Virus genome (UHGV): UHGV-0129253
Strand: one strand, 5' to 3'
Length of the DNA: 64,000 bases
Source of the DNA: a virus
In this document: piece by piece, positions 2,524 through 64,000 of the stretch
Position numbering within the stretch: position 1 is the stretch's first letter
How the letters are laid out: each line of letters begins with the position of its first letter
Program-made: the position numbers and the translations under genes
The notes under the pieces: generated by a model
Databases searched by the model: none
Told to the model about the DNA's origin: nothing
What the model saw: the letters and a program-made list of their open reading frames with translations, nothing else

Positions 2524-2737
2524 AGCAGAGTTATTTCAGAAAATATCGGCTCTCGCGACTGAATGTCACGCTATAGCATCTGAGCTTGATGTTGGCGGTG
2601 AACGAACCGAGATGTTCGAAATATACAGTGTGCTGCGCAATCTCTGTCGGCGTGGCTACGCCACTCAAGTAGGGCGAATGACTAACCCACTACTCTCATC
2701 CTGTGATGAGGATGACTCGGATGAGGATGACGAATGA
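2516..2737 (+). CDS. Small hypothetical protein with acidic C-terminus (DEDDSDEDDE)
   Basis: GTG start at 2516 with AGGAG ~9 nt upstream; the ORF track's longer start overlaps the upstream gene. Confidence 0.45.
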   Translation: MNKAELFQKISALATECHAIASELDVGGERTEMFEIYSVLRNLCRRGYATQVGRMTNPLLSSCDEDDSDEDDE

Positions 2738-3399
2738 TGCATAAATCAGTAGCCGGTGAGTTTCAGAAGGAAGTCGATAATACTACCGTTCTATTGGACG
2801 ATATTTTAAGCATTCTCGCGCTTCTTGAGGCTGGCGATTGGTCAGAACATTGCACTAAAACGGAGTTAGGCGGTCGGCTTGAAAGAGAGATTACACGACT
2901 TATTGGTGATGCGCAGGAAGCTACAGTCACTAGTTATGAGTTAATCGCTGAAGCCTGGCGTTTGATGGATGGACAAGATCCTAAAACTAGCGATTGGCAT
3001 AGCAAGGCTTCGAAGTATTTAAATTCCGATAGGGTAGAAAAAGTTGATGATGTGAAACCGAAGCCAGTAGACCACGGTTTCCGCGATAACTGCGAATGCT
3101 CTAGTTGCCAGACCACGGCCCGTATTTGTTCCGAATTGACAGATAAGTCCAGCCTAATCTACGAAGTTAATGTAGGCGGTAATACATGGGTCGAATGCAC
3201 AAGAGCTGCATACGTAAGAGCAAAAGACAAGGGTGAATTAACCAGAGTTGTTGCCCATCACCCAAATAATGAGCTTAAAGATCACCAGATTAGAGAACTG
3301 GTGAACGAGTTGCGGGATATTGCGGTTCAGTACCACGGAACGCAGCAATTGCGGGAGAAAATTGCCAGAGCAGTGAACAACTCAGTCCGTAAAAAATAA
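2734..3399 (+). CDS. Hypothetical protein (Cys cluster CECSSCQ)
   Basis: 221-aa ORF, ATGA overlap with upstream gene. Confidence 0.5.
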   Translation: MMHKSVAGEFQKEVDNTTVLLDDILSILALLEAGDWSEHCTKTELGGRLEREITRLIGDAQEATVTSYELIAEAWRLMDGQDPKTSDWHSKASKYLNSDRVEKVDDVKPKPVDHGFRDNCECSSCQTTARICSELTDKSSLIYEVNVGGNTWVECTRAAYVRAKDKGELTRVVAHHPNNELKDHQIRELVNELRDIAVQYHGTQQLREKIARAVNNSVRKK

Positions 3400-5885: not shown

Positions 5886-7919
5886 ATGACCCAAGTCGCG
5901 AAGAAAATTCTGGTGACGTGCGCGCTGCCGTACGCTAACGGCTCAATCCACCTCGGCCATATGCTGGAGCACATCCAGGCTGATGTCTGGGTTCGTTACC
6001 AGCGAATGCGCGGCCACGAGGTTAATTTCATCTGTGCCGACGATGCCCACGGTACGCCGATCATGCTGAAAGCGCAGCAGCTTGGTATCACACCGGAGCA
6101 GATGATTGGCGAAATGAGTCAGGAACACCAGACTGATTTCGCAGGCTTTAACATCAGCTATGACAACTATCACTCGACGCACAGCGAAGAGAACCGCCAG
6201 CTGTCTGAGCTTATCTATACTCGCCTGAAAGAGAACGGTTTTATTAAAAACCGCACTATCTCTCAGTTGTACGATCCGGAAAAAGGCATGTTCCTGCCGG
6301 ACCGTTTTGTAAAAGGCACCTGCCCGAAATGTAAAGCGCCAGATCAATACGGCGATAACTGTGAAGTCTGCGGCGCAACATATAGCCCGACTGAATTGAT
6401 CGAGCCGAAATCGGTGGTTTCTGGCGCTACCCCGGTAATGCGTGATTCTGAACACTTCTTCTTTGATCTACCCTCTTTCAGCGAAATGTTGCAGGCATGG
6501 ACCCGCAGCGGCGCGTTGCAGGAGCAGGTGGCGAACAAAATGCAGGAATGGTTTGAATCCGGCCTGCAACAGTGGGATATCTCCCGCGATGCGCCTTACT
6601 TCGGTTTTGAAATTCCGAACGCGCCGGGCAAATATTTCTACGTCTGGCTGGACGCGCCGATTGGCTACATGGGTTCCTTCAAGAATCTGTGCGACAAGCG
6701 CGGCGATACCACCAGCTTCGATGAATACTGGAAGAAAGACTCCACCGCCGAGCTGTACCACTTCATCGGTAAAGATATTGTTTACTTCCACAGCCTGTTC
6801 TGGCCTGCCATGCTGGAAGGCAGCAACTTCCGCAAGCCGACCAACCTGTTTGTTCACGGCTATGTGACGGTGAACGGCGCGAAGATGTCCAAGTCTCGCG
6901 GCACCTTTATTAAAGCCAGCACCTGGCTGAATCATTTTGACGCTGACAGCCTGCGTTACTACTACACTGCGAAACTCTCTTCGCGCATTGATGATATCGA
7001 TCTCAACCTGGAGGATTTCGTTCAGCGCGTGAATGCCGATATCGTGAACAAAGTGGTTAACCTGGCCTCTCGTAATGCAGGCTTTATCAACAAGCGTTTT
7101 GACGGCGTGCTGGCAGGCGAACTGGCTGACCCGCAACTGTACAAAACCTTTACTGATGCCGCTGAAGTGATTGGCGAAGCATGGGAAAGCCGCGAATTTG
7201 GTAAAGCTATCCGTGAAATCATGGCACTGGCTGACCTGGCTAACCGCTATGTCGATGAACAGGCTCCGTGGGTGGTGGCGAAGCAGGAAGGTCGCGATGC
7301 CGATCTGCAGGCGATTTGCTCTATGGGCATTAACCTGTTCCGCGTGCTGATGACTTACCTGAAACCGGTACTGCCGAAACTGACTGAACGTGCAGAAGCA
7401 TTCCTGAATACAGAACTGACCTGGGATGGTATCCAGCAACCGCTGCTGGGCCATAAAGTGAATCCGTTCAAGGCACTGTATAACCGTATCGATATGAAAC
7501 AGGTGGAAGCACTGGTGGAAGCATCCAAAGAAGAAGTGAAAGCCACAGCCGCACCGGTAACTGGCCCACTGGCTGACGACCCGATTCAGGAAACCATCAC
7601 CTTTGACGACTTCGCCAAAGTTGACCTGCGTGTGGCGCTGATTGAAAACGCGGAGTTTGTTGAAGGTTCTGACAAACTGTTGCGCCTGACGCTGGATCTC
7701 GGCGGTGAAAAACGCAATGTCTTCTCAGGCATCCGTTCTGCTTATCCAGACCCACAGGCACTGATTGGTCGTCACACCATTATGGTGGCTAACCTGGCTC
7801 CGCGTAAAATGCGCTTCGGTATCTCCGAAGGCATGGTGATGGCTGCTGGCCCCGGCGGGAAAGATATCTTCCTGTTAAGCCCGGATGTCGGTGCTAAACC
7901 TGGCCACCAGGTTAAGTAA
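5886..7919 (+). CDS. metG: Methionine--tRNA ligase
   Basis: 677 aa from ATG 5886 ([25 protein letters not shown]...); HIGH-type and KMSKS motifs; the ORF track's 5757 start is an upstream artefact. Confidence 0.95.
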
Positions 7920-7965: not shown

Positions 7966-8003
7966 CATATAGACACAACCCCTTCTGACTTTAACAAACC
8001 CTA

Positions 8004-8018
8004 AAACAATTTGTTTTC
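8004..8018. promoter_or_regulatory. Early-type palindrome AAAACAA-T-TTGTTTT
   Basis: Perfect 7-bp arms; upstream of a GATAAT -10-like box. Confidence 0.4.
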
Positions 8019-8052
8019 TACCTTTTATTGATTGAGATAATAAGCCACATAA

Positions 8053-8068
8053 GAAAACAAATTGTTTC
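8053..8068. promoter_or_regulatory. Early-type palindrome GAAAACAAATTGTTTC
   Basis: 13 nt upstream of ATG 8081. Confidence 0.4.
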
Positions 8069-8080
8069 GGAGTGGTTGAA

Positions 8081-8380
8081 ATGTTGAACATTACCCAAGC
8101 CTACCAGGTGGCATTGATCAGTTCATCTCATACATCAGAGGAAGATGCTCGCCGATTCATGATCGCAAGCAATGAGCTGGATTGGGTTTCACAAATTGAC
8201 GGCGGTTGTATTGTCCACGCTGGGTTACAGGATGATGTCTGGAAAGAGGACTTGCGTCGATATGGTATATCCGAAGGCGCGATTGCTAACATTCAGAAAG
8301 TACTTGATGTAGGCTTTGACTCTGTACATTTTGATTGTGGTGCGCCGGTCGTTGAAGGGCTTGAGTGCTGGAACTGGTAA
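8081..8380 (+). CDS. Hypothetical protein
   Basis: ATG 8081 with GGAG upstream. Confidence 0.5.
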   Translation: MLNITQAYQVALISSSHTSEEDARRFMIASNELDWVSQIDGGCIVHAGLQDDVWKEDLRRYGISEGAIANIQKVLDVGFDSVHFDCGAPVVEGLECWNW

Positions 8381-8425
8381 CAGATATTAAAGCATTGGTA
8401 GTTTGTTTTTAGGATTATCAAAGAA

Positions 8426-9160
8426 ATGAAAAAGTTGAAAAGTTTAGAAATCCCTGGGACTGGTTATAAATTCTTTATGGACAACGCGGAGTGTGCACCT
8501 AACGCGTTGGAAAAAATACAAAGTCTTATCAACAGCCTTACTGAAGAAGCGAAAGAACTGAATAGCGAGGCGACAAAGGACAATACAGCTAAAATCCAAT
8601 GCTTAAATCTCGTTTCTTATTGTTTATATCAAGTGTCCAAGACACTGATTAAAGGCAATATCTATTACGACGATGAAGACACCTCGACACCTGAAGAAAA
8701 AGATAGCGATGAAGAACTCTATGAAGATATCTCTACTAGTGCGGGTCACGCTGCCTTCGATGCTATGGGTAAATCGTCAGGCATCAGATCGTTTGTTGAA
8801 CAGAACAATTCGACAATAATGATTGAGTACTGTGAACAAACAAGCTCCAAGGCCATACATGTTCTTCACGATGTTGCTGCAGGGGTTCGCTGTGAGGCTG
8901 AAGCGGTCAGAAAAGATGTATTTGGTGCAGACAGTAATACCGTGAAAGCGTTCATCAACAGTGCTCTGCTAAATTCTTACTCAAACCTTATCGTCAATGC
9001 GGCACTATGCGCAAATTCTGGTGAAGAACACATTGTCATAACCGAAACCAAATATGAGCATCAACAGTCACCAACCATAGAAGAGGTAACTGCATTGGCT
9101 ATCAAACAGGCGAGTGAAATTAGTGATGAAATTCTCTCTCTGCTAAACAAAACTAAGTAA
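8426..9160 (+). CDS. Hypothetical acidic protein
   Basis: 244-aa ORF with acidic stretches (DDEDTSTPEEKDSDEELYED). Confidence 0.5.
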   Translation: MKKLKSLEIPGTGYKFFMDNAECAPNALEKIQSLINSLTEEAKELNSEATKDNTAKIQCLNLVSYCLYQVSKTLIKGNIYYDDEDTSTPEEKDSDEELYEDISTSAGHAAFDAMGKSSGIRSFVEQNNSTIMIEYCEQTSSKAIHVLHDVAAGVRCEAEAVRKDVFGADSNTVKAFINSALLNSYSNLIVNAALCANSGEEHIVITETKYEHQQSPTIEEVTALAIKQASEISDEILSLLNKTK

Positions 9161-9229
9161 AACATTGATAATGGCGGTCACAATTTGATTCTTTTCTATA
9201 AGAATCCGTTGATCGCCACTACTCCCCTT

Positions 9230-10020
9230 CCATGCCTGGAATCACATCCTTAAATATCAATAGGTTACAGTTGTTTATACCAATAAGAAAACAACTGAAT
9301 AACAGATCAACGAAACATCAACGCTTTCACCCGATTTGGTCTAAAAAATTGACGTTTTCACACATCACTGCTTATACCCGTAATTCTACGCAGCAGACAG
9401 CGCCACAGCGTCCAATTTTCACCACAGACGACCCAACACACTACCAACAAAAACACACGCTCAAAATCGCTCCCGTTGCGTTACACAACCATATAAACAA
9501 CTTATTTTCAGGTATAACGAAACAACTAAATAACACATATGCCATTTCCAAAAACAACCAACCTCTTTATGGCAGGCTACCGAAAAGACCCACCTCTTCT
9601 CCCCAGGCTACCGGACAACCAACCTAACTTTCACAGGCAATCCGAAAACATTCATACGCGCGATACCCACGACACGCCATTACCCAAACAGCGAAGAAAC
9701 ACCAGAATCACTGAACCCCCAACGAAGCCTGTAACCGCAAGGCTTCTCTCAATCCCAAAAGACACGAAACAGAACAATCACGGGAAACGCCATTACCCAA
9801 CACACGAATAACTACAAAAGCCTTTCACACACTCCAGACAAACAACTCAAACACAATAACGAAAGGAATCGCCCACCTGCCATTACTCCATACACGGAGA
9901 AGAACAATCACCAAAACGACGAGAACACCCCATAGAAGAACCACCGCAAAACGAACGAAACCACATACACCGACAGAGAAAACAACACACCCAATTCACC
10001 AACAGAAATAGTCGCCGTAT
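9230..10020. other. G-depleted A+C-rich noncoding tract (~0.8 kb)
   Basis: Plus strand ~12-15% G by hand count on three 60-nt lines; ORFs in it translate to low-complexity sequence. Confidence 0.5.
9551..9653 (+). repeat. Direct repeats of CAGGCTACCG(A/G)A(A/C)AA..CC(A/C)ACCT (3-4 copies)
   Basis: Same family recurs at 13565-13648. Confidence 0.4.
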
Positions 10021-52707: not shown

Positions 52708-53229
52708 TTATTCTTCGAACAATTTTTCGATAGATTTTGTTGGATAGAACAAAGAACGATCGTTGTTACCAACCAGCTGGATAAAGCCCAAACTTTTATA
52801 AAACGCCCTGGCTTTATCGTTCAACGCCTCAACGAAAAGCCCATGAATGCCTACCGCAAGAGATGCATTGTACACAACACGCATTGCGTGAGTTACAAGC
52901 ATTGAGCCAAGCCCCTGACCTTGAAGAGATTTGTCCAAAGCCAGTCTGCCTAAAGTGATACTTGGGACATTCCGATAAGGCACTTTCTTTTGCTGACTCT
53001 TTGAAGGTAAGGTTTCTTTCTCAAAGCAGCTGCCTGACAAAGTGTAATAACCTAATACCTTTGGTATTTCTTCTTTAGTGCAAAGCACATAAGCGCGAAG
53101 AATTTTTCCTTCATGCTGTCTTTTTAAGTGGTTGGTCAAAAATGCGTTTAGTGACTCTTCGCCGCAATCAAAACCGTTTAGATCATAATCGTTCTCTCCA
53201 GAGAAAATCTCGATCGTCGTATTGCTCAC
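52708..53229 (-). CDS. GNAT-family toxin (TacT/AtaT/KacT-like type II TA toxin)
   Basis: 173 aa GNAT; paired with upstream DUF1778-type antitoxin. Confidence 0.75.
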   Translation of the reverse strand: MSNTTIEIFSGENDYDLNGFDCGEESLNAFLTNHLKRQHEGKILRAYVLCTKEEIPKVLGYYTLSGSCFEKETLPSKSQQKKVPYRNVPSITLGRLALDKSLQGQGLGSMLVTHAMRVVYNASLAVGIHGLFVEALNDKARAFYKSLGFIQLVGNNDRSLFYPTKSIEKLFEE

Positions 53230-53236
53230 GAGTAAA

Positions 53237-53506
53237 TTACTCCATGCTTTTCAGACGATTGGCAGCTCGTTTCAGCTTGTCGTTCGGTGCCGGAGGATTG
53301 CTTATAGCATCCATAACCAGATTCCAGGACTCTTCACTTAGAACCAGTCTACGGTGTTGCTCTATCACCTTCACGGCACGTTCGGATGCACTGCTAACCA
53401 TGAACTGGGTAATGCTCTGGTTAGACATTGCGGCAGCTTCCTCGATGATGCTTTTATCGTCATCGGTTAATCTCAAATCGATGCGCTGCTTTTTCAGTGC
53501 GGACAT
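53237..53506 (-). CDS. DUF1778 / RHH antitoxin (TacA/AtaR-like)
   Basis: 89 aa, 7 nt upstream of the GNAT gene on the same strand. Confidence 0.75.
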   Translation of the reverse strand: MSALKKQRIDLRLTDDDKSIIEEAAAMSNQSITQFMVSSASERAVKVIEQHRRLVLSEESWNLVMDAISNPPAPNDKLKRAANRLKSME

Positions 53507-60733: not shown

Positions 60734-62052
60734 AAAAGTTGATCGCACTTAAGCATAAGCTGGACGAAATGAAAGCTATGGGAACCAATGCAAAAAAAGA
60801 GGCATTGACCAACATGGATGACTTCGAGCAAAGCATGGTTTCATTGATGCTCAACCCTTTCATCCGTTTTGGGGTAAAGAAATACAAAGTGGCAGAGCCG
60901 CTTAGTGAGTCCGTCCCAAGTGACGAAAAAGCCATTGATGTACTGAATAAGCTGGCCTCTCGCGAGCTGACGGGGAACGCAGCAATAGAAGCTGTTGAGT
61001 CTATCGTGGCGTCAATGTGCGCCGATGGGCAGGACGTGTTCCGTCGTTTCCTCTTAAAAGACCCGAAAGCAGGTGTTGGGATTAGCCTATGCAACAAGGT
61101 TTTTGAAAATCCCATTCCGAAATTCGAGGTGCAGCTGGCGTCACCGTATAAAGAAAAAGGCGACAAATACCCCTTCAAGCCAAATCCTAAAGCAAAATGG
61201 CCGATGATTGGCAGTCTTAAGCTCGATGGTTTGCGAGTAATTTGTGAGGTTATTGTTGACGAGGAAGAGGTGAACTTCCTTTCTCGTACTGGTAATCCAA
61301 TCACGTCTCTCGATCACCTAAAGCCAGCCATGCTCGAATTAGGCAAACTTTCAGGCCACAAACACATCTTCTTCGATGGTGAAGGAACAGCCGGTTCATT
61401 TAACCAGTCCGTATCTGCATTGCGCAAAAAGAACGTGCAGGCAATTGGCGCTATTTATCATGTTTTCGACTTCTTCCTACCGGAATGGCGGGCACAGGCT
61501 AAATCCAAAGAGTATGCAAAGACAGGTATGAAGCTGAAAGAGCGCCTGGCTATTCTCGTGGCGTTGTTCAAAAACGATCGCAGTGAAGACTACGCGCAAG
61601 ACATTCACCTACATCCGTTCTACATCATCCATAGCCACGAAGACTTCATCGAACGCTTCATGAAACGCCTGGACGATAACGAAGAAGGGGAGATGGGCAA
61701 AGATCCGAACTCTGTTTACGAGTTTAAACGTACCCGCAGCTGGTGGAAGTTAAAAGACGAAGATTCAGAAGATGGTGAAATTATCGATTTTGAGCCTGGC
61801 GACCCGGACTCTGGTTTTGCCAACACGCTTGGAAAAATTGTTATTCGTCTTGAAAACGGCGTCATCGTTCGTGCGAGCGGCATTAAGCATAAATATCTGG
61901 ACGAGATCTGGAACAACAAAGAGAAGTACCGTGGTCGTATTGTCGAGGTTCATTGTCACGAGAAAACGCCTGATGGCAGCTTACGCCACCCACGACTGAA
62001 ATGGCCGCGTTGCTTACGCGATACCGAAGATCGAATCGGAGATAAAGAATGA
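60730..62052 (+). CDS. ATP-dependent DNA ligase
   Basis: Adenylation motif I KLDGLR, motif III FFDGEG; 440 aa. Confidence 0.7.
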   Translation: MKKLIALKHKLDEMKAMGTNAKKEALTNMDDFEQSMVSLMLNPFIRFGVKKYKVAEPLSESVPSDEKAIDVLNKLASRELTGNAAIEAVESIVASMCADGQDVFRRFLLKDPKAGVGISLCNKVFENPIPKFEVQLASPYKEKGDKYPFKPNPKAKWPMIGSLKLDGLRVICEVIVDEEEVNFLSRTGNPITSLDHLKPAMLELGKLSGHKHIFFDGEGTAGSFNQSVSALRKKNVQAIGAIYHVFDFFLPEWRAQAKSKEYAKTGMKLKERLAILVALFKNDRSEDYAQDIHLHPFYIIHSHEDFIERFMKRLDDNEEGEMGKDPNSVYEFKRTRSWWKLKDEDSEDGEIIDFEPGDPDSGFANTLGKIVIRLENGVIVRASGIKHKYLDEIWNNKEKYRGRIVEVHCHEKTPDGSLRHPRLKWPRCLRDTEDRIGDKE

Positions 62053-62264
62053 TCGTATTAAGTAAAAGGGAGAAAGAAACGCTTCATGAAATCAGTAAGT
62101 GGCCGGAGTTCCCTGAGTACTGGAAGCCTAAAACGCGAGCTAAGTTAGAGCGTTTAGGGTTGGTTGCAAACGTTTCTGAAACGTGGTGCTCGGCCAACTA
62201 CCAGTTAACTGATAAAGGGAAAGTATTGCTACAGCAATTAGTAGAATCAGGAGTGTTAAAATGA
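62049..62264 (+). CDS. Hypothetical small protein (71 aa)
   Basis: ATGA overlap with ligase stop. Confidence 0.45.
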   Translation: MIVLSKREKETLHEISKWPEFPEYWKPKTRAKLERLGLVANVSETWCSANYQLTDKGKVLLQQLVESGVLK

Positions 62265-62413
62265 TTCCATACATCTCATTAGCTTTTATGGGTGGCTTCC
62301 TTATCGGCTTCGGCATCTGTCGTGATTTAATTAAGCAGGAACTTAAAACCAAAACACTGTGCATCGGAAAGCGTGTGTATCGGGTAGTTCATGAAACAAA
62401 GGTGAAAAAATGA
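62261..62413 (+). CDS. Small membrane protein (50 aa, one TM), translationally coupled
   Basis: ATGA overlaps at both ends; frame verified codon by codon; below track threshold. Confidence 0.3.
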   Translation: MIPYISLAFMGGFLIGFGICRDLIKQELKTKTLCIGKRVYRVVHETKVKK

Positions 62414-62700
62414 GCAATTTAACTTCTTGGGAATGGTGGTTGGCCACCTATTTCTTAGCGGCCGGAGTCGCATTCGCCTTTTACGTAGGTCAGTTAGTCG
62501 TAAAACTGTTGCTGATTAAATTTGCTAGTCATAAACGTATCGATGATGGTCTGTGGCGTCTTGGCACCCTGGTGGAAACTCGCTACGGGCAACTTAAGGA
62601 GAACGAAACCATTACTATCCAAGCGAAACGATTCACTGCCACCATCACAAGAACACCTAGTCGTAGAGTGGCCTTGATCATAAAAGTCACAACCGAATAA
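62410..62700 (+). CDS. Small membrane protein (96 aa)
   Basis: N-terminal TM WWLATYFLAAGVAFAFYVGQLVV. Confidence 0.5.
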   Translation: MSNLTSWEWWLATYFLAAGVAFAFYVGQLVVKLLLIKFASHKRIDDGLWRLGTLVETRYGQLKENETITIQAKRFTATITRTPSRRVALIIKVTTE

Positions 62701-62709
62701 AAACATGAT

Positions 62710-62731
62710 GATAAGTATTTACTTACTTATC
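62710..62731. promoter_or_regulatory. Late-type motif GATAAGTATTTACTTACTTATC, possibly driving the tRNA region
   Basis: Last member of the family; no plus-strand CDS follows before the tRNAs. Confidence 0.3.
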
Positions 62732-62937
62732 TTTTATGTATAAGATGACTTTGTTTTCGTTGAGACGCGACTGTTTGAACTTAAATACAAGTGCAAACGA
62801 AGAAGTCTATCTGGCAGTAGCCTAATAAGCCAAACACCAGCGAGGTCAGTTTCCAGCCTCGTTACCGAAATGGGACACACTGAGCGAGTGTGATTGCAGA
62901 ACGCAGGAGGGAACATTCATGTTCCCTCCGATGAAGT

Positions 62938-63014
62938 AACAGAATGGGCGGTTGGTATATTTTCAACTCCATATGACTCCCGGATTCTTAGCCACTGACC
63001 GCCCATCCTGTTAC
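62938..63014. repeat. Long hairpin element (arms ACAGAATGGGCGGT / ACCGCCCATCCTGT)
   Basis: ~14-bp arms around a ~45-nt interior containing a second palindrome GGGAACATtcATGTTCCC nearby. Confidence 0.35.
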
Positions 63015-63090
63015 GTCATTTTGTTCAATTATGTCGTTTATACTGGGTTAAAAAGCGGCGACGTAGCCCGGCTGGTATGGTTAGCCAGCA

Positions 63091-63212
63091 CACAACGTTG
63101 AGGCCATTACATTTTTATCAATTCTAAGGTTCTATTCACAGAGATACCGGCGAGCGTTGATATGTAACATGTTGGGCAAACATTCAATCGGAGTAGTGGC
63201 CTCAACGTTGTG
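63091..63212. repeat. Long hairpin element 1 (20-nt arms CACAACGTTGAGGCCATTAC / GTAGTGGCCTCAACGTTGTG)
   Basis: One G-T position, ~82-nt loop. Confidence 0.5.
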
Positions 63213-63478
63213 AAGACAGGATTGTTGTGTAGGTTTAACCACTGTTGCCATTGGTGCCTGTTTTCACAACAAATGATTCCATACATCACATTGTATAAAT
63301 TACAAAGTAGGTGCTGTCCTCAGAAACATCATCTACTTAAAGATTTTGCCTTCTACTATTGAGCGAAGTCGAAAGCGTCTGGCACTAACGAAAAGTGCAA
63401 GTAGCGGTGCGTTTCCTGGCAGAAACTAAACCGTCGCGATTGGCACTGTTGAGTAATAAATACTGGCAGTGCTGAATT

Positions 63479-63553
63479 GATGGTGTAGCTCAGCGGTAGA
63501 GCAGTTGGCTGTTAACCAACTGGTCGGTGGTTCGAATCCACCCACCATCGCCA
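63479..63553 (+). tRNA. tRNA-Asn (anticodon GUU)
   Basis: Hand-folded cloverleaf: acceptor GATGGTG/CACCATC, D-stem GCTC/GAGC, anticodon loop CTGTTAA, T-arm GGTGG-TTCGAAT-CCACC, encoded CCA; unlike the enterobacterial tRNA-Asn as I recall it. Confidence 0.8.
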
Positions 63554-63558
63554 ATTTA

Positions 63559-63645
63559 GGGGAGTTAGTCCGTAGGGGCAGCGGGGTAGACTGTAAATCT
63601 ACTGTCATTGCGACTCGGGTGGTTCGACTCCATCACTCCCCACCA
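63559..63645 (+). tRNA. tRNA-Tyr (anticodon GUA), type II with long variable arm; D-arm non-canonical
   Basis: Acceptor GGGGAGT/ACTCCCC, anticodon arm GTAGA-CTGTAAA-TCTAC, variable-arm hairpin GTC-ATTGC-GAC, T-arm GGTGG-TTCGACT-CCATC, encoded CCA. Confidence 0.6.
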
Positions 63646-63649
63646 AATT

Positions 63650-63725
63650 GCCGGTTTAGCTCAGTTGGTAGAGCGCCTGCCTTGTAAGCAGGATGTCAGC
63701 GGTTCGATCCCGTTAACCGGCACCA
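63650..63725 (+). tRNA. tRNA-Thr (anticodon UGU)
   Basis: Acceptor GCCGGTT/AACCGGC, D-stem GCTC/GAGC, anticodon arm CCTGC-CTTGTAA-GCAGG, T-loop TTCGATC, encoded CCA. Confidence 0.8.
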
Positions 63726-63726
63726 A

Positions 63727-63815
63727 CACAACAGGTAAGAGCATTGGGCGAATCGGCGATACTGACCCACAAGCCCGTAAATCGATAGAGTCAGACCAGT
63801 GCTCTTACCGTTGTG
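63727..63815. repeat. Long hairpin element 2 (arms CACAACAGGTAAGAGCATTGG / CCAGTGCTCTTACCGTTGTG)
   Basis: Starts immediately after tRNA-Thr CCA; paralogous to 63091 and 63868. Confidence 0.5.
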
Positions 63816-63867
63816 AGGAAGTGCAGCTCTTTGAAGCAACCAGAAGATAAGCATCTGGCTTCACAAC

Positions 63868-63944
63868 ACAACGATAAGATCATTACGGTTAATCGTCGTT
63901 CATGTGCACAATGACTGGTCGAAAGTAGTGATCTTACCGTTGTG
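63868..63944. repeat. Long hairpin element 3 (arms ACAACGATAAGATCATTAC / GTAGTGATCTTACCGTTGTG)
   Basis: Same terminal CACAAC...CGTTGTG signature with compensatory changes. Confidence 0.5.
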
Positions 63945-64000
63945 ATGAATGCACAGGCTGATGTGCCGCAACTACAGTAGTGCGCGCTTTGCGGGGCTTG

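Follow-up and report, generated by a model that had tools for sequence, protein, structure and literature searches.

The three tandem tRNA genes close to the 3' end of the 64-kb window, i.e., the whole stretch of DNA analysed here, are best explained as functional, phage-lineage tRNA genes of an SSU5-supergroup phage-plasmid, which would raise the supply of tRNA while the element is being expressed; we place the probability of this reading at roughly 0.8. The gene calls, the location on the element, the divergence from host genes, the structural conservation, and the codon statistics that carry it were all observed directly. The cluster itself is ordinary and already known, being annotated on hundreds of RefSeq plasmids, and its sole unusual point is the shifted D-arm of the tRNA-Tyr, which is common to many phages.

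In the window, ARAGORN calls three tRNA genes and no more, all on the + strand, and their coordinates and anticodons (Table 1) agree with the matches to Rfam RF00005, each of which exceeds the gathering threshold of 29 bits. In the ARAGORN drawings and the Infernal alignments, all three genes have a 7-bp acceptor stem, a 5-bp anticodon stem with a 7-nt loop, a 5-bp T stem with a UUCGAnY loop, and a discriminator followed by CCA, while the 2-nt connector (positions 8-9) before a D-stem of 3-4 bp is present in tRNA-Asn and tRNA-Thr and absent in tRNA-Tyr. The initial annotation had described tandem tRNAs for Asn-GUU, Tyr-GUA, and Thr-UGU with an encoded CCA and gaps of 5 and 4 nt, and had named ARAGORN as a check; the observation is confirmed in all details, the CCA and both gaps being read in the sequence itself. 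A permissive Rfam search of 62400-64000 returned, beyond the three tRNAs, only chance-level matches to beta_tmRNA (17 bits against a threshold of 84), sR30, and Plastid-ycf2.

Table 1. Features of the tRNA cassette and its flanks (positions in the window).
Feature	Positions	Strand	Basis
Non-coding structured leader, ~620 nt, conserved with SSU5	62850..63478	+	SSU5 alignment, inverted repeats, folds
tRNA-Asn (GUU), G73 discriminator, CCA encoded	63479..63553	+	ARAGORN; Rfam RF00005 75.5 bits
5-nt spacer ATTTA, Asn/Tyr	63554..63558	+	sequence
tRNA-Tyr (GUA), type II, long variable arm, G1-C72, A73, CCA encoded	63559..63645	+	ARAGORN; Rfam 39.7 bits
4-nt spacer AATT, Tyr/Thr	63646..63649	+	sequence
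tRNA-Thr (UGU), G1-C72, C2-G71, A73, CCA encoded	63650..63725	+	ARAGORN; Rfam 73.1 bits
Hairpin B, 20-bp stem CACAAC(A)GGUAAGAGCAUUGG / CCAGUGCUCUUACCGUUGUG, variable apical part	63727..63815	+	fold z -6.3
Conserved spacer B/C (AGGAAGUGCAGCUCUUUGAAGCAACCAGAAGAUAAGCAUCUGGCUUCA)	63816..63866	+	sequence identity in relatives
Hairpin C, 20-bp stem CACAACGAUAAGAUCAUUAC / GUAGUGAUCUUACCGUUGUG	63867..63944	+	fold z -4.3
Start of second conserved spacer, leading to tRNA-Ser(UGA) in near-identical plasmids	63945..64000	+	NZ_CP020118.1 alignment

The distribution of the cassette identifies the element to which it belongs. In a megablast search of 5,426 complete E. coli genomes, the 247-nt cassette hit 773 places, of which 760 lie on plasmids and 13 on chromosomes; the full three-gene cassette is present in 268 of these genomes, and 100%-identical copies occur on plasmids only, of about 107-114 kb, where the RefSeq annotation already lists tRNA-Asn, tRNA-Tyr, and tRNA-Thr. 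The plasmids carrying the cassette are non-mobilizable and encode tail and terminase proteins, a DnaB-like helicase, a primase, and a ligase. The window is 97-100% identical to one of the near-identical plasmids, NZ_CP020118.1, across 62000-63749, and its structural module displays 98.7% identity to phage Cyrano and 80.7% identity to Salmonella phage SSU5 over 91% of a 24-kb query. Judged by the plasmid matches, the phage-type genes, and the identity to Cyrano and SSU5, the window evidently represents an SSU5-supergroup phage-plasmid of E. coli. The gene order helicase-primase-ligase-tRNA-CobT is common to the near-identical plasmids and SSU5, and the literature on SSU5-type elements names tRNA loci as landmarks only. 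In the near-identical plasmids, a fourth gene, tRNA-Ser(UGA), is located ~320 nt downstream of tRNA-Thr, with a further hairpin and an intrinsic terminator behind it (NZ_CP020118.1); from the annotation and alignment of that plasmid, the gene would fall ~45-130 nt past the end of the window.

Expression, processing, charging, and benefit of the tRNAs would, we infer, follow a common route. The fixed non-coding module, preceded by the helicase-primase-ligase genes and followed by a CobT-like gene, would be transcribed on the + strand as a single precursor; a promoter scan found no sigma-70 consensus promoter in the 2 kb around the cluster, upstream included. Given the 4-5 nt spacers and the encoded CCA, RNase P would be expected to cut each 5' end and exonucleases to trim the short 3' trailers, yielding the mature tRNAs. 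Charging by the host AsnRS, TyrRS, and ThrRS is predicted since the known E. coli identity elements, for which PMC9976931 served as the reference, are present: GUU and G73 in tRNA-Asn; G1-C72, A73, U35, and the long variable arm in tRNA-Tyr; and the first acceptor pairs as in thrU together with the anticodon in tRNA-Thr. Once charged, tRNA-Thr(UGU), tRNA-Ser(UGA), and, less so, tRNA-Asn would fit the supply to codons that the element uses more than its host, while tRNA-Tyr would shore up the tRNA-Tyr pool when host defences destroy it, as homologous phage genes do against retron-Eco7.

Codon compensation is the classic explanation for phage tRNAs. Codon use was compared between the ORFs of the late module and a 50-kb K-12 sample, which contributed 40 host ORFs, with the ORFs called mechanically. 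In the late module, ACA is enriched 3.4x over the host sample (p=1e-21), UCA, which is read by the neighbouring tRNA-Ser, 3.0x, and the Asn codons 1.37x (p=8e-7), while the Tyr codons stand at 1.03x, which is not significant (p=0.79). A comparison of AAC/AAU, UAC/UAU, and ACA had been proposed in the initial annotation; enrichment is seen for ACA and Asn and not for Tyr. Codon supply accounts for tRNA-Thr and tRNA-Ser, for tRNA-Asn in part, and not for tRNA-Tyr. Moreover, AGA, AGG, CGA, and AUA are enriched as much as ACA or more, and tRNAs matching them are absent from the cassette; the codon compensation is thus incomplete. That codon compensation alone explains all three tRNAs, with no link to defence, is a possibility to be taken seriously in view of the ACA, UCA, and Asn enrichment. 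It is nevertheless clearly the less probable account, since the Tyr gene, whose codons are not enriched, is nonetheless a 92-nt indel between P1 and the P1-like/SSU5-like cassettes, and since four enriched codons go unserved.

For tRNA-Tyr, protection of the pool against depletion would appear more likely, and is the better-supported idea, than codon supply. PtuAB, the effector of retron-Eco7, degrades tRNA-Tyr, and the tRNA-Tyr of T5, SP15, and HS106 restore phage growth (Azam et al. 2024, PMC11555353), these three being the only members of the lineage shown working in translation and rescue (PMC11555353). In the SP15 tRNA-Tyr, mutations in the anticodon or in the stems abolish the rescue (PMC11555353), and over-expressed host tRNA-Tyr rescues too (Azam et al., PMC11555353), so that the benefit would be one of quantity rather than of resistance. 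Anticodon-loop changes that confer nuclease resistance, an idea put forward in PMC10264068, were also considered and rejected: the anticodon loops of all three genes are those of the host genes, and there is thus no sign of resistance to anticodon nucleases. In the PARIS and Schlafen papers that were consulted, no relevant Asn, Thr, or Tyr tRNA targets were found.

It is also conceivable that the main role of the tRNAs falls in the plasmid (lysogenic) state rather than in lytic growth, for instance by offsetting a tRNA-directed toxin of the element itself or the tRNases of competitors. The element encodes a TacA-type antitoxin and a GNAT toxin, and toxins of this family acetylate aminoacyl-tRNAs. 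PrrC and other systems have furthermore been reported on E. coli SSU5-type elements. We consider such a role unlikely, given that nothing ties the GNAT toxin to Asn, Tyr, or Thr tRNAs and that the P1 homologues belong to the C1-repressed ban operon, which points to expression on lytic induction.

The preferred reading, i.e., a supply of functional tRNAs during expression of the element, takes the tRNA-Tyr to be a working molecule in spite of its D-arm. The initial annotation held that this tRNA has canonical acceptor, anticodon, variable, and T arms and a D-arm that folds only in an unusual register, and the ARAGORN drawing and Infernal alignment agree with both statements. In the canonical register, ARAGORN draws two D-stem pairs only, while Infernal places a 2-nt insertion after U8-A9, followed by a 4-bp D-stem (CCGU/GCGG), a 7-nt loop with GG, and then G26; the connector between the acceptor stem and the D-stem, UAGU, spans 4 nt against the canonical 2 nt. 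The gene matches 1,535 phage records, the match covering 80% or more of its length in 1,336 of them, with identities of ~90% in T-even-like (RB14, 90%) and rV5-like phages and of about 76-80% in T5-like (80%), Felix O1-like, and N4-like (HS106, 76%) phages; a homologue is found even in an Enterococcus phage. Across a set of 18 diverse phage sequences, 97% of cells are paired in the cloverleaf drawn with the shifted D-stem, and 15 of its 24 pairs show compensatory changes. When the D-stem is taken by itself, the shifted register is 97% paired with two compensatory pairs, as against 56% and none in the canonical register, the compensated variants being CCCG/CGGG, CCGG/CCGG, and UCGU/GCGA. Every one of the 18 members carries a 4-5-nt connector (UA+NN), a CCGU/GCGG or compensated D-stem, a long variable arm, and A73; U8 and A9 are invariant, and the two extra connector nucleotides are free to vary. 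A shifted stem conserved through compensatory changes argues that the D-arm of this gene is a conserved trait of its lineage and not decay. The T5-like and HS106 genes carry the same 4-nt connector, which indicates that this architecture is no bar to function.

A decaying pseudogene, or a tRNA-like RNA without a role in translation, would fit the two canonical D-stem pairs and the Rfam score, which lies 14 bits below that of K-12 tyrU (39.7 vs 53.4 bits; HS106, 37.8). The T5-like and RB14 genes score below the Rfam threshold, ARAGORN misses the Enterococcus phage homologue, and some public records tag homologues as tRNA-Pseudo/tRNA-OTHER. This alternative is very unlikely all the same, since the shifted D-stem is conserved and covarying in the 18 phage sequences, all other stems show compensatory change, the tyrosine identity elements are all intact, and the gene sequence is unchanged (100%) in 40 plasmids or more; in addition, the T5 and HS106 genes with the same connector rescue from retron-Eco7, and the rescue by the related SP15 gene is lost on mutation of the anticodon or stems. 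RefSeq labels the identical sequence tRNA-Tyr with no pseudogene flag, which speaks, if only indirectly, against the pseudogene call that the initial annotation had named as a refutation. The shifted D-arm lowers the scores: tRNA finders and Rfam under-score this phage tRNA-Tyr lineage, which is unannotated or marked 'pseudo' in a number of phage records.

Alignment with host tRNA genes, a further check named at the outset, gave 50/76 identical positions (66%) between tRNA-Asn and K-12 asnT, 63/87 (72%) between tRNA-Tyr and tyrU, and 61/76 (80%) between tRNA-Thr and thrU, i.e., nothing approaching near-identity. The acceptor stem of the tRNA-Asn is wholly unlike that of the host (GAUGGUG vs UCCUCUG in asnT), in keeping with the earlier remark that this tRNA differs from the enterobacterial one. 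The accompanying proposal that the set is element-borne rather than a host integration target is likewise supported by the plasmid location and by this divergence. tRNA genes are common as integration sites, and a tyrosine recombinase gene is located ~2.5 kb downstream of the cluster in the near-identical plasmids. Although Tn3 insertions have been published near the tRNA loci of SSU5-type elements, the notion that these genes form a tRNA locus of the host chromosome, or serve an integrating element as its attB/attP target, is effectively refuted by the 760 of 773 near-identical places on plasmids, by the 66-80% identity to K-12 genes, and by a locus that is internal to a circular phage-plasmid and conserved in position in SSU5.

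The element-borne genes are flanked by structured non-coding sequence. The leader contains hairpins at ~62906-62929, 62931-63019, 63091-63212 (hairpin A), and 63207-63270, and its RNA folds have z-scores of -5.3 and -5.9. On the other side, hairpin B begins 2 nt after the CCA of tRNA-Thr, and the B/C spacer is 95-97% identical in P1, P7, D6, and SJ46 and 83-93% identical in Klebsiella SSU5-like phages and Sashaviruses. The spacer preceding tRNA-Ser, which is 100% conserved, folds no better than shuffled sequence (z -0.8, -1.4). Hairpins A (63091-63212), B, and C are copies of one family, with a 20-bp stem, a base of CACAAC(G)/(C)GUUGUG, and apical parts of 30-80 nt that are unrelated between copies, and a fourth copy follows tRNA-Ser in the near-identical plasmids. 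CACAAC motifs are concentrated here, 9 of the 42 in the window falling in its last 0.9 kb, and elsewhere in the window few long inverted repeats occur. Among 14 distinct stems, 96% of cells are paired and 10 of 20 pairs show compensatory change, of which the compensation alone is informative, as the stems were pre-selected for pairing. A conserved U·G wobble at stem position 17 exists on the tRNA strand only, which points to RNA. The same stem with a different interior recurs in P1, whose annotation places the doubtful ORFs plp and upl antisense to the stems, in P1-like plasmids, in Sashaviruses, where it occupies a non-coding stretch beside a remnant tRNA-Thr 3' end, and in the late operon of the lambdoid phage HK629, between an HNH gene and the holin gene. 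No Rfam family matched the hairpins within 62400-64000. This covarying 20-bp hairpin family came as a by-product of the analysis, as did the tRNA-Ser beyond the window end and the slot swapping in related cassettes.

Several identities were considered for the hairpins and rejected. As integron attC sites they fail on three counts: no integron-integrase model fits the recombinase nearby; the 20-bp stems are near-perfect helices, with neither extrahelical bases nor an unpaired central spacer; and CACAAC/GTTGTG departs from the R-box consensus (RYYYAAC...GTTRRRY). Antitermination of the boxA type was suggested by 'UGCUCUUAC' in hairpin B, which resembles the lambda/rrn boxA; this element is buried in the stem and is absent from the other copies. 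RNAs of the T4 species 1/2 type were set aside as well, the RB14 region downstream of the tRNAs being without CACAAC hairpins. RNase III cleaves T4 species 1 RNA, and the leading guess, from this parallel and the length of the stems, is that the hairpins may be RNase III processing stalks.

The two peculiarities of the locus might also be linked in a bolder proposal, which we put forward tentatively and regard as rather doubtful, in which the Tyr connector is an adaptive change of the tRNA core and the CACAAC hairpins are an undescribed family of structured RNA. The 4-nt connector may preserve charging by bacterial TyrRS while altering recognition by tRNA-Tyr-directed nucleases or by processing or modification enzymes. 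The CACAAC...GUUGUG hairpins, for their part, could serve as RNase III stalks or insulators and also as junctions at which tRNA modules are swapped between unrelated phages.

Beyond the single element, the cluster offers a clean example of how a cassette is built, in which a fixed locus has slots that are filled, emptied, or remodelled, as seen in the presence or absence of Tyr, the replacement of Tyr by Ser, and the combination of an Asn body with an Arg anticodon arm; one cassette is common to unrelated phage-plasmid families sharing a host. Codon use accounts for some of the tRNAs (Thr, Ser, and partly Asn) and leaves one unexplained (Tyr), a division in line with the recent view that certain phage tRNAs serve survival of tRNA-targeting immunity, and one that gives a simple testable prediction for phage-plasmids.

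Among known systems, the T5, SP15, and HS106 genes belong to the same lineage as the tRNA-Tyr, with which they share 76-80% identity, the 4-nt connector, the CCGU/GCGG D-stem, the long variable arm, and A73; those genes are, however, part of large tRNA regions of virulent phages with a strong dedicated promoter, whereas no sigma-70 consensus promoter was found in the 2 kb around the cluster. The tRNA cluster of the T-even phage RB14 has spacers of a few nucleotides, an encoded CCA, an overlapping anticodon repertoire, and a 90%-identical Tyr gene, but its order is different (...Ser-UGA, Thr-UGU, Ile-CAU, Tyr, Asn, Arg-UCU), identity drops to 72% for Asn and 79% for Thr, and the tRNAs are followed by unrelated non-coding RNAs. 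N4 has a near-identical Asn gene, a similar Thr gene, and similar spacers, with AATTT resembling the ATTTA of the window, and differs in its order, Asn-Ser(UGA)-Thr, with Ser in the middle slot where the window has Tyr. SSU5, which stands for the SSU5/pHCM2-type phage-plasmids, shares the locus, between the ligase genes and the CobT-like gene, as well as the leader and a closely similar tRNA-Asn; it is without Tyr, Thr, hairpins B and C, and Ser at this locus.

Close relatives of the cassette as a whole are found in P1 and P1-like plasmids. The P1 reference genome (NC_005856) annotates the homologues as trnA (Asn, 89% identical) and trnT (Thr, 96% identical), in the same order and on the same strand, and the same hairpin/spacer region follows the tRNAs at 85-96% identity; unlike the window, P1 is without Ser and without Tyr, the latter by a precise 92-nt difference comprising the Tyr gene and one spacer. 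The homology with P1 and P1-like sequences starts only ~4 nt before tRNA-Asn, upstream of which the window has the SSU5-type leader. The P1 tRNAs are situated in the ban operon, whose C1 promoter/operator (Oban/Op72) region is unrelated to that leader, and no operator control by the C1 repressor (Oban/Op72) was found upstream of the cassette in the window. P1-like plasmids carry Asn-Tyr-Thr-Ser, the Ser gene lying past the window end here, and the Asn gene of the window is 99% identical to that of the P1-like Ro157c2; in some P1-like plasmids, the first gene has an Arg(UCU) anticodon arm and an altered D-loop alongside acceptor and T arms of the Asn type. The arrangement Asn-Tyr-Thr(-Ser) recurs in 41 loci among the fetched viral contigs. 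Taken together, the slot differences among SSU5, P1, P1-like plasmids, and N4 argue that the tRNA module is a mobile, slot-like cassette common to unrelated phages of the same hosts.

In plasmids near-identical to the window, a fourth gene, tRNA-Ser(UGA), lies past the window end, succeeded by a hairpin and an intrinsic terminator (6808-6827 in L001, plasmid NZ_CP020118.1); therefore, the tRNA module is cut by the window. UCA is 3.0x enriched in the late genes of the element. On the other side of the cassette, a non-coding leader of ~620 nt, conserved with phage SSU5, precedes tRNA-Asn and contains further hairpins, one of which (window 62906-62929) displays compensatory differences, i.e., GGAGGGAACAU...AUGUUCCCUCC in the window vs AUAGGGCAUG...CAUGCCCUAU in SSU5. 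No promoter was found in the leader by a sigma-70 consensus scan of 2 kb around the cluster. The positions of these and the other features are collected in the table.

Positions of the tRNA module features, their homologues and a gene pair found elsewhere in the window
Feature	Locus	Position	Strand or remark
tRNA-Ser(UGA)	L001 (NZ_CP020118.1)	6567-6653	~window 64045-64131, beyond window end
tRNA-Tyr homologue	L127 (T5-like phage)	1495-1582	
tRNA-Tyr homologue	L134 (RB14, T4-like)	1501-1587	
tRNA-Tyr homologue	L131 (Enterococcus phage Ef2.1)	301-382	
Leader	window	62850-63478	upstream of tRNA-Asn
CACAAC(G)/(C)GUUGUG hairpins	window	63091-63212, 63727-63815, 63867-63944	
CACAAC(G)/(C)GUUGUG hairpin	L001 (NZ_CP020118.1)	6656-6733	
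Chimeric tRNA, first cassette slot	L130 (NZ_AP022217.1, P1-like plasmid)	1135-1211	
Asn-X-Thr cassette with variable middle slot	L137 (N4-type phage 3HA13)	601-850	
Asn-X-Thr cassette with variable middle slot	L003 (P1)	2451-2604	
Inter-hairpin spacers	window	63816-63866, 63945-64000	second runs on in L001 to 6566
ORFs plp and upl	L003 (P1)	2575-3144	minus; annotated antisense to hairpin/spacer region
GNAT acetyltransferase	window	52708-53229	minus
TacA-type antitoxin	window	53237-53506	minus; adjoins acetyltransferase gene

The tRNA genes are bracketed by a family of hairpins with 20-bp stems, which share the base CACAAC(G)/(C)GUUGUG, while their apical parts are unrelated to one another. Covariation is observed at 10 of the 20 stem pairs, and a conserved U.G wobble is confined to the tRNA strand. 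The same stems are present in P1, P1-like plasmids, Sashavirus and the lambdoid HK629; an Rfam search of window 62400-64000 at a permissive threshold returned no family for them. These hairpins may serve as RNase III processing stalks or mark module junctions.

P1-type and SSU5-type elements share 95-100% identity in the two spacers that separate the hairpins, and the folds of these spacers are no better than those of shuffled sequence. The first spacer also occurs in Sashaviruses and in Klebsiella SSU5-like phages. In P1, plp as annotated extends into the 3' end of trnT, and no surviving ORFs comparable to plp or upl are present in the SSU5-type element, despite segments at 85-96% nucleotide identity. 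It may be that plp and upl are not genes.

The phage tRNA-Tyr lineage, which carries a 4-nt connector before a shifted D-stem, is under-called by standard tools: the T5-like and RB14 genes score below the Rfam threshold, the Ef2.1 homologue is missed by ARAGORN, and in many phage records such genes are unannotated or labelled pseudo.

Elsewhere in the window, the GNAT acetyltransferase and its neighbor, which matches Pfam TacA1 (E=3.5e-26), constitute a TacT/TacA-like toxin-antitoxin pair. TacT-family toxins acetylate aminoacyl-tRNAs. Separately, window 8004-8067 holds an inverted repeat whose 16-nt arms, AAACAATTTGTTTTCT / AGAAAACAAATTGTTT, match perfectly and lie 32 nt apart, in a low-GC stretch (8001-10000: GC 0.42, AT skew 0.20).

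The slots of the cassette vary among elements. In the P1-like plasmid NZ_AP022217.1, the first slot is filled by a chimera that has exactly the acceptor stem and T arm of the Asn tRNA, but the anticodon arm of an Arg(UCU) tRNA and a changed D-loop, which looks like an identity switch via arm replacement; the order Arg-Tyr-Thr occurs in at least nine viral contigs. The middle slot, between Asn and Thr, holds Tyr in the window and Ser(UGA) in N4, where the spacers are similar to those of the window cassette; P1 has no gene in this slot and differs by precisely 92 nt.
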